Of a stretch of DNA of 64,000 nt, positions 48,050 through 49,972 are shown piece by piece; position 1 is the stretch's first letter, and each line of letters opens with the position of its first letter. The DNA lies in NCBI RefSeq assembly GCF_011745625.1, contig NW_027191452.1:1116001-1180000 (forward strand). Direction: 5' to 3'. Made by a program: the position numbers and the translations under genes. This stretch comes from Cladosporium halotolerans (Eukaryota). The notes under the pieces are model-generated. The model was not told the DNA's origin. It saw nothing but the letters and a program-made list of their open reading frames with translations, and made no database searches.

Positions 48050-49972
48050 ATGTCGTGGCGCAACAATGCCGGCAGTACCGGCGCCAACAACATACCCCTG
48101 GGCACCCGGCGCCGCGGCGGCGACGCGAGCGAAACCCCCGATTTTGCGCCCGCCTCGAACGAAGGCAAGCGTGGTCGCAGCCCCGAACCGGTCCCTAAGG
48201 AGCCTGCCCTGAACCCGGATGGCACCAAGAAGCGTCGCAAGCGTAACCGTTGGGGCGATGCTTCGGATAACAAGGCCGCTGGCCTGATGAACCTGCCCAC
48301 GGCCATTACCGCGCCCATGACTGCCGAACAGCTGGATGCATATGTGACCCATTTGCGCATCGAGGAGATCAGCCAGAAGCTGAGGATCAACGACGTTGTC
48401 CCAGCCGATGGTGACAGGTGAGCTTGCAGTCCCACTACCTCCAATCGAGCCGAAGCTTTGGATACTAACATGTCGCAAGGTCTCCTTCTCCTCCGCCGCA
48501 ATACGATAACTTCGGTCGCCGTGTGAACACCCGCGACTATCGCTACCGTAAGAGGCTCGAAGAAGAGCGTCACAAGCTCATCGAAAAGGCGATGAAGATC
48601 ATCCCGAGCTACCACCCGCCGTCTGACTACCGCCGTCCTACTAAGACACAGGAGAAAGTCTACGTGCCGGTTAACGATTACCCAGAAATCAACTTCAGTA
48701 TGCTGCTAATTCTCCCCACCTGCACTTTACTTTGCTACTGCCTGAGCAGCAGCTTGTTGCTTATGGCGAGCAAAAGCCAATCTAACCCCGTCCCTACTAA
48801 CGCTTCCCTTCGTATCACTTGAACATTAACTAACATTAGCTTTCTTTCTACTAACAGTCGGTCTACTTATCGGTCCCCGTGGTAACACTTTGAAAACAAT
48901 GGAAAGCAAGTCTCAAGCCAAGATTGCAATTCGCGGAAAAGGCTCTGTCAAGGAAGGCAAGGGCAAATCCGATGCTGCTCACGCTAGCAACCAGGACGAA
49001 GATCTGCACTGCCTGATCATGGCAGACACTGAGGAGAAGATCATCAAAGCCAAGGAGCTCATTCACCAGGTCATTGAGACTGTAAGTCATCCGTCTTCGA
49101 CATCACGAGTTATGTTTGACCTAACAAATTCGCAGGCTGCCTCCATTCCTGAGGGCCAGAACGAGCTGAAGCGCAATCAACTTCGTGAGCTCGCCGCGCT
49201 TAACGGTACTCTCCGTGACGACGAGAATCAGGCTTGCCAGAACTGCGGTGAAATCGGCCACCGCAAGTACGACTGCCCCAACGCCAAGAATTTCACCGCA
49301 AATGTTATTTGCCGCGTTTGCGGCAATGCTGGACACTTTGCTCGCGACTGCCCGGATCGTGCCCGCGGCTCAGACTGGCGCAACATGCCACCGCGCGCCC
49401 CAACGAATGCTGCCGACAAGGAGTACGAGAACCTCATGAACGAAATTGGAGGTGGCACCGCAGGCAATCCGTCGAGGCAGATCGGCTGGCAAGAGGGTGG
49501 TGCCGGCGATGCAGCGGGTGGTGCCGATCTCAAGCCGTGGCAGCGTGGTCCTACTGGAGGCCCAGCGCCTTGGGAGCAGAACCGCCAGAACAACCCGGCT
49601 CCGTGGCAGCAACGCCCTCCGCCTGGCGGTCCTTCTGGAGGACCTGCTCCTTGGCAACAGCGCGGTGGTCAAGACAACTATGGCGGCGGTGGTGGATATG
49701 GCGGTTACGGTCAGGGAGGCTACGGTGGTGGTGGCAGAAGCTACGACGCTCCTCCGTGGCAGCGCGGTGGCGGCGATCGCGAGCCGCGTGGCGGTGGTGG
49801 TGGTGGTGGACCCGCACCATGGCAGATGCCGCAGCCGCCGCAGATGGGCTATGGAGGCACTCCCGGCATGGACTTCAACGCTCCTCCGCCGCCGCCGCCA
49901 CCGCCTGGTGGCATCCCTCCTCCTCCCCCGCCAAGCGACAACATCCCTCCGCCTCCCCCGCCGCCGCAGTAG
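48050..49972 (+). CDS. MSL5: Branchpoint-bridging protein / splicing factor 1; introns 48418-48479, 48698-48857, 49082-49135
   Basis: ULM '[10 protein letters not shown]', '[10 protein letters not shown]', KH '[16 protein letters not shown]', QUA2 '[12 protein letters not shown]', two CCHC knuckles, Pro-rich tail. Confidence 0.95.

Follow-up and report, generated by a model that had tools for sequence, protein, structure and literature searches.

Why does the gene for the protein that recognises the branch site carry an intron crowded with that protein's own binding word? The window, a stretch of 64,000 nucleotides from Cladosporium halotolerans, contains a gene for the branchpoint-binding protein (BBP, also SF1 or Msl5), and its second intron is of this kind. 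It belongs to a set of introns in which the donor is weak, the acceptor lies far from the branch site and is often weak too, a single branch site is strong and further CTAAC words keep fixed positions; they also have a hairpin, a premature stop codon and retained transcripts. Our preferred reading, to which we give a probability of roughly 0.55, is that this conserved intron is regulatory and that its retention keeps BBP in check. Surplus BBP would fill sites at which branching should be impossible and thereby stall its own intron; the dependence on BBP dose is what we infer. The locus bears on how the level of BBP/SF1 is set, and on whether an activator of splicing can repress it on a natural intron.

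The coding region lies at 48050..49972 on the plus strand. Its four exons (48050-48417, 48480-48697, 48858-49081 and 49136-49972) encode 548 amino acids. Judged by its sequence, the gene is a member of the BBP/SF1/Msl5 family, with an SF1 helix-hairpin, a KH-QUA2 domain and zinc knuckles. Three Pfam families score above cut-off in the exons: PF16275 (SF1-HH), PF22675 (KH-I BBP-like) and PF00098 (CCHC knuckle). A Cladosporium protein (Dothideomycetes) shares 99% identity over the KH exon, and this homologue matches the solved Msl5 and SF1 KH-QUA2 structures. A DNA search matched the gene once in the genome. Intron 1 (48418..48479, 62 nt), which serves as an internal control, and intron 3 (49082..49135, 54 nt) are ordinary, and both are joined out in all four of the runs described below. 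Intron 2, the proposed regulated intron, is a GT..AG intron of phase 1 and splits an Ile codon six codons ahead of the GPRG loop. An earlier note on this DNA had described it as 160 nt long, at 48698..48857, interrupting the KH domain ahead of that loop. All these coordinates hold, and the 48697-48858 joint is present in contigs of three of the four runs. The 15 introns that a simple-rule search found in the window are 51-102 nt long, and 14 of them have a single motif.

Five branch-point-like motifs had been listed for intron 2, at 48705, 48781, 48795, 48829 and 48849, and each is where it was placed. Dinucleotide shuffling, repeated 5000 times, gives 1.25 CTRAY where the intron has five (P=0.004; with one true branch site discounted, P=0.03). 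No other 160-nt stretch on either strand of the window has three or more CTAAY.

Read on the plus strand, the intron begins with a weak donor, GTATGC (48698..48703). The BBP-type motif GCTAAT (48705..48710) lies next to the donor, and its branch-type A is at +12; in control introns the branch A is at +33 or later. The central hairpin (48731..48774, -21.7 kcal/mol) is overlapped by a smaller hairpin (48764-48779), the form kept in the nearest clade. Two middle motifs, TCTAAC at 48781 and TACTAAC at 48795 (together 48781..48801), lie just 3' of the hairpin and are predicted to be single-stranded. Homology and spacing place the putative true branch site at ACTAAC (48829..48834), with its A at 48833. 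A proximal TAG (48837..48839) comes 6 nt past this A, followed by a pyrimidine tract between the two AGs (48840..48848) and by a terminal TACTAAC that overlaps the used acceptor (48849..48857). The A of the terminal word, 3 nt from the intron end, is too near to serve as the branch for that acceptor. Perfect TACTAAC is found in the middle and terminal words, not at the putative branch site. Three internal GTs are present, none of them consensus-like. An unsystematic search for a nested intron (stwintron) found none evidently conserved in the alignments and no nested joint in the four runs.

How widely is this arrangement kept? We scanned metagenome contigs with the codons of NDYPEINF plus one base, an exact-peptide pattern that favours filamentous ascomycetes, and obtained at least 114 new loci. 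The set of 115 loci includes the window's own. Nine without a downstream exon were dropped (five cut inside the intron, four apparently unrelated). Among the matches listed, intron 2 is present in 103 loci and absent in 3. Clustering the 103 introns at 75% identity gives 55 clusters, and the intron is at least 100 nt long in 51 of them (among the matches listed); the clusters are related to one another, and counts across them are not independent trials. Introns 1 and 3 from the same genes served as controls (31 and 30 recovered, 61 together; medians 56 and 54 nt; about one motif). Among the matches listed, intron 2 is 104-247 nt long in 51 of the 55 clusters, compared with about 55 for the neighbouring introns. 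By the peptide-pattern presence call, and again among the matches listed, intron 2 is missing in none of 97 rows that have intron 1 or 3, and 12 rows lack intron 1 or 3 and keep the other. Intron 3 is downstream of the premature stop and hence provides a junction after it, yet it is missing in 10 rows (among the matches listed).

A quick tree of the clusters, from which 11 were left out for short cover, groups the motif-rich introns among the matches listed with Dothideomycete, Sordariomycete, Leotiomycete, Eurotiomycete and Lecanoromycete references, which we take to be correctly labelled as these five classes of filamentous ascomycetes. One further locus, L061, has a Pezizomycete as its best match (85%). 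Three introns that are short and plain (L014, L073 and L086) form one small clade that also lacks intron 1, among the matches listed. Going by these three, the long motif-rich design can be lost, and their clade is a natural loss that makes a useful control. A very divergent fungal BBP (L012:1226-1310) has an 85-nt intron at the same position with four CTAAC, the first at +4 and overlapping the donor. L012 could not be placed in the tree; its intron raises the prospect that the design may predate the filamentous ascomycetes.

Conservation of the extra CTAAC motifs was what the earlier note had proposed to check, and they are kept by position across classes. Summed over clusters, 237 CTAAC compare with 27 expected among the matches listed. 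The position-specific conservation holds in 51 of 55 clusters while the middle of the intron diverges (among the matches listed). Of the 51 long introns among the matches listed, 50 have a first CTRAY motif that begins between +6 and +10 (+10 itself in 42), and none has a donor with T at +6, whereas most of the 61 control donors have one. In the matches listed the first 55 nt hold one to five motifs, 128 in all; even the closest of 53 control branch sites is farther from the donor than 115 of these. A motif 25-65 nt ahead of the branch motif is found in 38 of the 51 long introns among the matches listed and is absent in 13. The putative branch motif is ACTAAC in 46 of 51, and its A lies 20-32 nt from the intron end, compared with 9-14 in most controls (both among the matches listed). 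CTAA overlaps the acceptor in 35 of the 51 listed long introns and in none of the 61 controls; the remaining 16 have no terminal motif. The acceptor is AAG in 27/51, against 5/61 of the controls, and a retained intron meets a stop inside the intron in 54 of the 55 clusters (both among the matches listed). By their spacing, the CTAAC words beside the donor and on the acceptor lie where branching should be impossible.

The branch site also differs from the other words in its pairing with U2. We scored this pairing against the genome's own U2, for which the four extending letters after the motif are ACTT. Among the matches listed, three or four of these letters are matched at 39 of 51 branch sites, compared with 8 of 53 controls, 4 of 60 middle motifs and 12 of 128 motifs at the 5' end. 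The window's own putative branch site matches two of the four. Upstream, the excess of U2 pairing is small (3.35 vs 2.45 of 8). Decoys mostly have a C where the branch site has an A. The point is weakened because the orthologues represent one conserved word, because the last T belongs to the YAG and because the A may serve BBP.

The hairpin at 48731-48774 had been overlooked by the earlier note. It folds better than its shuffled versions (z -3.2, 2/200 shuffles); the fold of the whole window intron is not unusual (z -1.15). In a set of 50 introns the folding of the central segment on average surpasses that of shuffles (mean z -1.6, with z under -2 in 20), and the whole-intron fold is unusual in just 9 of the 50. 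The 3' arm of the stem lies about -22 to -4 from the first middle CTAAC and leaves the motif open, with 28 of 37 exceeding their shuffles (p=5e-4). In one clade of 15 sequences 94.5% of cells pair and four pairs are changed on both sides; the covariation score of this clade is reached by 0/500 shuffles, a result that related sequences can give without structure. Both the sequence and the length of the hairpin differ among clades. The folding predictions indicate that the hairpin is kept and its sequence is not. Among the matches listed, the nine sequences nearest the window have another, small hairpin in common; its 8-nt loop is conserved, and in the window this hairpin competes with the long one. 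Its counterpart at 48764-48779 has a loop that is nearly invariant in these nine related introns among the matches listed and lies 2-3 nt ahead of CTAAC. Conservation of this loop suggests a protein contact. Two other pairings were considered and rejected. The donor pairs with a stretch 5' of the branch site in one clade's consensus fold, at -2.97 kcal/mol within a species and -3.08 kcal/mol between mismatched species (P=0.73), and shuffles or control introns pair just as well. A pairing between the 5' CTAA and the proximal TTAG is not general: four clusters have CAG, and several more have no TTAG.

Is the intron ever left in? We compared the contigs of four runs with 48330-49230. None of the runs is on record as RNA; we take them as RNA-like because all four have introns 1 and 3 removed. 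In X16, X19 and X4 intron 2 is spliced out with a joint to 48858, and in two of the four runs, X1 and X4, it is retained. DNA is an unlikely source of the retained form, because in X1 it stands in one contig without introns 1 and 3 and in X4 no contig covers either of these introns. X1 and X4 come from different studies and are a few letters off the window, so that retention is seen in slightly different strains. X16 and X19 match the window sequence and show the spliced form only. In X4 the retained and the spliced contig have similar depth (255 and 267), although contig depth is a poor measure. Five metagenome rows among the matches listed lack both introns 1 and 3 and are in this sense cDNA-like, although their DNA may itself have lost both introns; three of them are spliced at the distal AG and two (L070 and L075) keep intron 2. 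Constitutive splicing, named earlier as an outcome that would speak against a switch, is thus not what the contigs contain (retention in 2/4 runs and 2/5 cDNA-like contigs). One contig of X19 leaves the gene at 48950 with 255 unrelated letters and is probably an assembly chimera.

A retained intron 2 meets a TGA at 48820..48822, as had been predicted, after 236 residues. The 236-residue product ends before the GPRG loop and is without most of the KH domain, QUA2 and the knuckles. The retained form (48050-48822) would keep the N-terminal basic motif and the SF1 helix-hairpin and have no RNA-binding domain. If this product is made, it could compete for the partners of BBP.

The preferred reading can be put as a sequence of steps. 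When BBP is scarce, it would bind the branch site, U2 would take over and the distal AG would be used. The takeover would be helped by the 4-nt extension of U2 complementarity that the decoys do not have. When BBP is plentiful, BBP-U2AF/Mud2 would also fill the other words. The word 3' of the branch site would then block access of U2 and cover the acceptor, and the words on the donor side would get in the way of U1 or set up a bridge between U1 and BBP that is too short for branching. With the intron kept, the RNA would be detained or sent to nonsense-mediated decay, and less BBP would be made. Published work bears on several of these steps. The KH-QUA2 domain of Msl5 binds UACUAAC, with sensitivity to the first three bases of this word (PMC4338336), and Msl5-Mud2 associates with U1 (PMC3378887). 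In yeast extract U2 is kept from a branch site that has an Msl5 site placed 16 nt downstream of it (PMC8464032); the terminal word in the window is 21 nt past the branch A. That block was seen on a branch-site mutant, and an upstream Msl5 site helps U2 loading (PMC8464032). In Arabidopsis, binding of SF1 favours the distal AG (PMC12746065), which counts against repression by BBP because the distal AG is the productive form here. The reading is further weakened because, among the matches listed, 16 of the 51 long introns have no terminal motif and 13 no middle motif. The role of the conserved proximal YAG is outside what it explains.

A bolder version is also conceivable, and we hold it only tentatively. 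A 2006 SELEX study of the extended BBP site is said to have found that a 5' stem-loop and a 3' A raise the affinity of BBP. The intron might be a dose meter at the branch site, of the same age as the filamentous ascomycetes, in which a U2-tuned site stands beside decoys for BBP only, put where no branching can take place and one of them behind a hairpin that may raise BBP affinity. Splicing would fall as BBP rises, with the earliest spliceosome trapped on the protein's own pre-mRNA. If true, a core commitment-complex factor would here repress splicing in nature, through the very word it normally binds.

The alternative that survives best, although we consider it rather unlikely, is that the intron is regulated and no BBP-dose loop exists. 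Retained RNA could form a detained nuclear pool, or retention could respond to another signal: the supply of U2AF/Mud2 or U2 snRNP, temperature acting through the hairpin, or another ACUAA-binding protein. Retention does vary between runs, and the similar depths in X4 hint weakly at a large steady pool, of a kind that would not survive strong decay. A role of yeast SF1 in keeping pre-mRNA in the nucleus has been reported (PMC3061054), and in mammals QKI represses through paired ACUAAC words (PMC13004596). A general sensor, however, would not require a design confined to the BBP gene, as is found in this genome. The 3' design has one match in 27.9 Mb, the BBP intron itself (reversed control 5). 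A near AG past a branch motif with a second AG has 10 matches (control 87). Donor plus adjacent motif has 51 (control 166), and among the 30 of these that were read only the BBP intron has further motifs within 160 nt.

Could the extra words instead be splicing enhancers? Upstream BBP would load U2 onto a weak intron and favour the distal AG, so that BBP promotes its own splicing. The donor and the acceptor of intron 2 are indeed weak, upstream cryptic sites were needed for rescue in yeast extract (PMC8464032), and the Arabidopsis preference of SF1 for distal AGs (PMC12746065) fits. We nevertheless find enhancers improbable. They do not account for weak sites and a long intron kept beside short, strong neighbours, nor for a word over the acceptor, nor for retention.

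More doubtful again is a switch between the two AGs, in which the proximal YAG comes into use when BBP sits on the acceptor or branching takes place at a middle word, so that the KH domain is broken or the frame shifted. Of the 51 long introns, 47 have an AG 5-7 nt past the branch A, always as a YAG (43 TAG, 4 CAG), and the pyrimidine tract after it has a mean of 89% pyrimidine in the orthologues (both among the matches listed). In window intron 2 no AG separates the middle words from the proximal TAG; several orthologues, however, have intervening AGs. The proximal AG is also nearer the branch A than in any of 54 control introns, where the minimum distance is 9. The earlier note had proposed that the upstream AG at 48838-39 would add 18 nt in frame inside the KH domain. 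In the window it does, but an in-frame product with six more amino acids is unsupported: the frame from the proximal AG is unconserved (0/1/2 in 13/22/12 of 47 clusters, among the matches listed), and a joint to 48840 appears in none of the four runs or five cDNA-like contigs. Contigs drop rare forms and decay could hide frameshifted ones; the window's own product, by contrast, would be in frame. We do not count the site as a conserved alternative 3' splice site with a second protein isoform, since its frame is not kept and no junction to it is seen in the RNA-like contigs. That the intron is kept as a non-coding RNA or stable lariat soaking up BBP is very unlikely: it is long, structured and has several single-stranded motifs, but it has no Rfam match at E up to 5 (three sub-threshold matches lie elsewhere in the gene), the hairpin varies by clade in sequence and length, and conservation is strongest at the splice sites.

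A layout of branch site, near AG, pyrimidine tract and far AG is reportedly also that of Drosophila Sex-lethal exon 3. Its splicing, with SPF45, is autoregulated as we propose for BBP (PMC9984181). Sex-lethal has a cassette exon controlled after step 1, whereas in the BBP intron the far AG is productive and the output seen is retention. The nearest fungal case is the retained intron of Neurospora srp2/SRSF5, an example of unproductive splicing of a splicing-factor gene (PMC4379411). The srp2 intron is like BBP intron 2 in being unusually long, stop-bearing and retained at a conserved position in a fungal splicing-factor gene. Its sequence is reported as not notably conserved among Aspergillus species (PMC4379411), whereas the BBP intron keeps its cis-words by position. 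These words are the target of the encoded protein itself, and the gene encodes a core branch-site factor, unlike the SR protein srp2. Sensitivity to decay was demonstrated for srp2 (PMC4379411); decay of the retained BBP form is only proposed.

Two further systems resemble the preferred reading in part. On yeast ACT1, cryptic Msl5 sites and a stalled FIC complex are like the BBP intron in that extra BBP sites, upstream and downstream of a branch site, alter the access of U2 and a downstream site blocks it (PMC8464032). The FIC was obtained in vitro on a mutant substrate and is not a natural feedback loop in a BBP gene (PMC8464032). Competition between QKI and SF1 shares several ACUAAC words in one intron and repression through a KH-QUA2 protein (PMC13004596). 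There a second protein does the repressing, and its words are neighbouring branch sites that can both be used (PMC13004596). In the BBP intron, by contrast, the positions of most words should not allow branching, and we propose BBP itself as the repressor.

Intron 2 likely belongs to autoregulatory unproductive splicing, with an alternative form in RNA, a premature stop and conserved words for its own protein. A full-text literature search that covered few subscription papers found no account of the BBP intron or of SF1/BBP autoregulation. Term searches in PMC4666396, PMC3061054, PMC12746065 and PMC13004596 found no SF1/BBP autoregulation. The retention event may be listed without comment in fungal RNA-seq tables. 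All this points to a self-limiting BBP switch that appears to be undescribed, within a kind of system, autoregulatory unproductive splicing, that is already known. The intron is a natural substrate on which to study how the fate of the early spliceosome depends on where the branch site lies, on pairing with U2 and on an AG that is too close. With 160-200 nt, separable elements and, by its class distribution, a presence in Neurospora- and Aspergillus-type laboratory fungi, it makes the questions of BBP level and of repression by an activator directly testable. To our knowledge budding yeast, the source of most of the biochemistry, has no intron in its BBP gene.

Triple CTAAC has 31 matches in the genome, 30 of which were retrieved. 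A BBP regulon was considered and rejected: the 14 other triple-CTAAC loci that were read are repeats, coding sequence, and introns or flanks of unrelated genes, and none was recognised as a splicing factor. A sugar-transporter intron (L172, G000:C317, about 119352-119449, minus strand) has seven CTAAY in telomere-like short repeats. Upstream of an aconitase X-like gene, a tandem repeat of 17-18 nt (L178, G000:C394:54904-54994) carries a TACTAAC-type word in each unit. A 66-nt candidate intron in a small gene without a Pfam match (L175, G000:C372, minus strand, locus 1499-1564) is a miniature of the BBP layout: it has CTAAC at +8 and again on the acceptor, and the letters after its branch motif are those that extend the pairing with U2.
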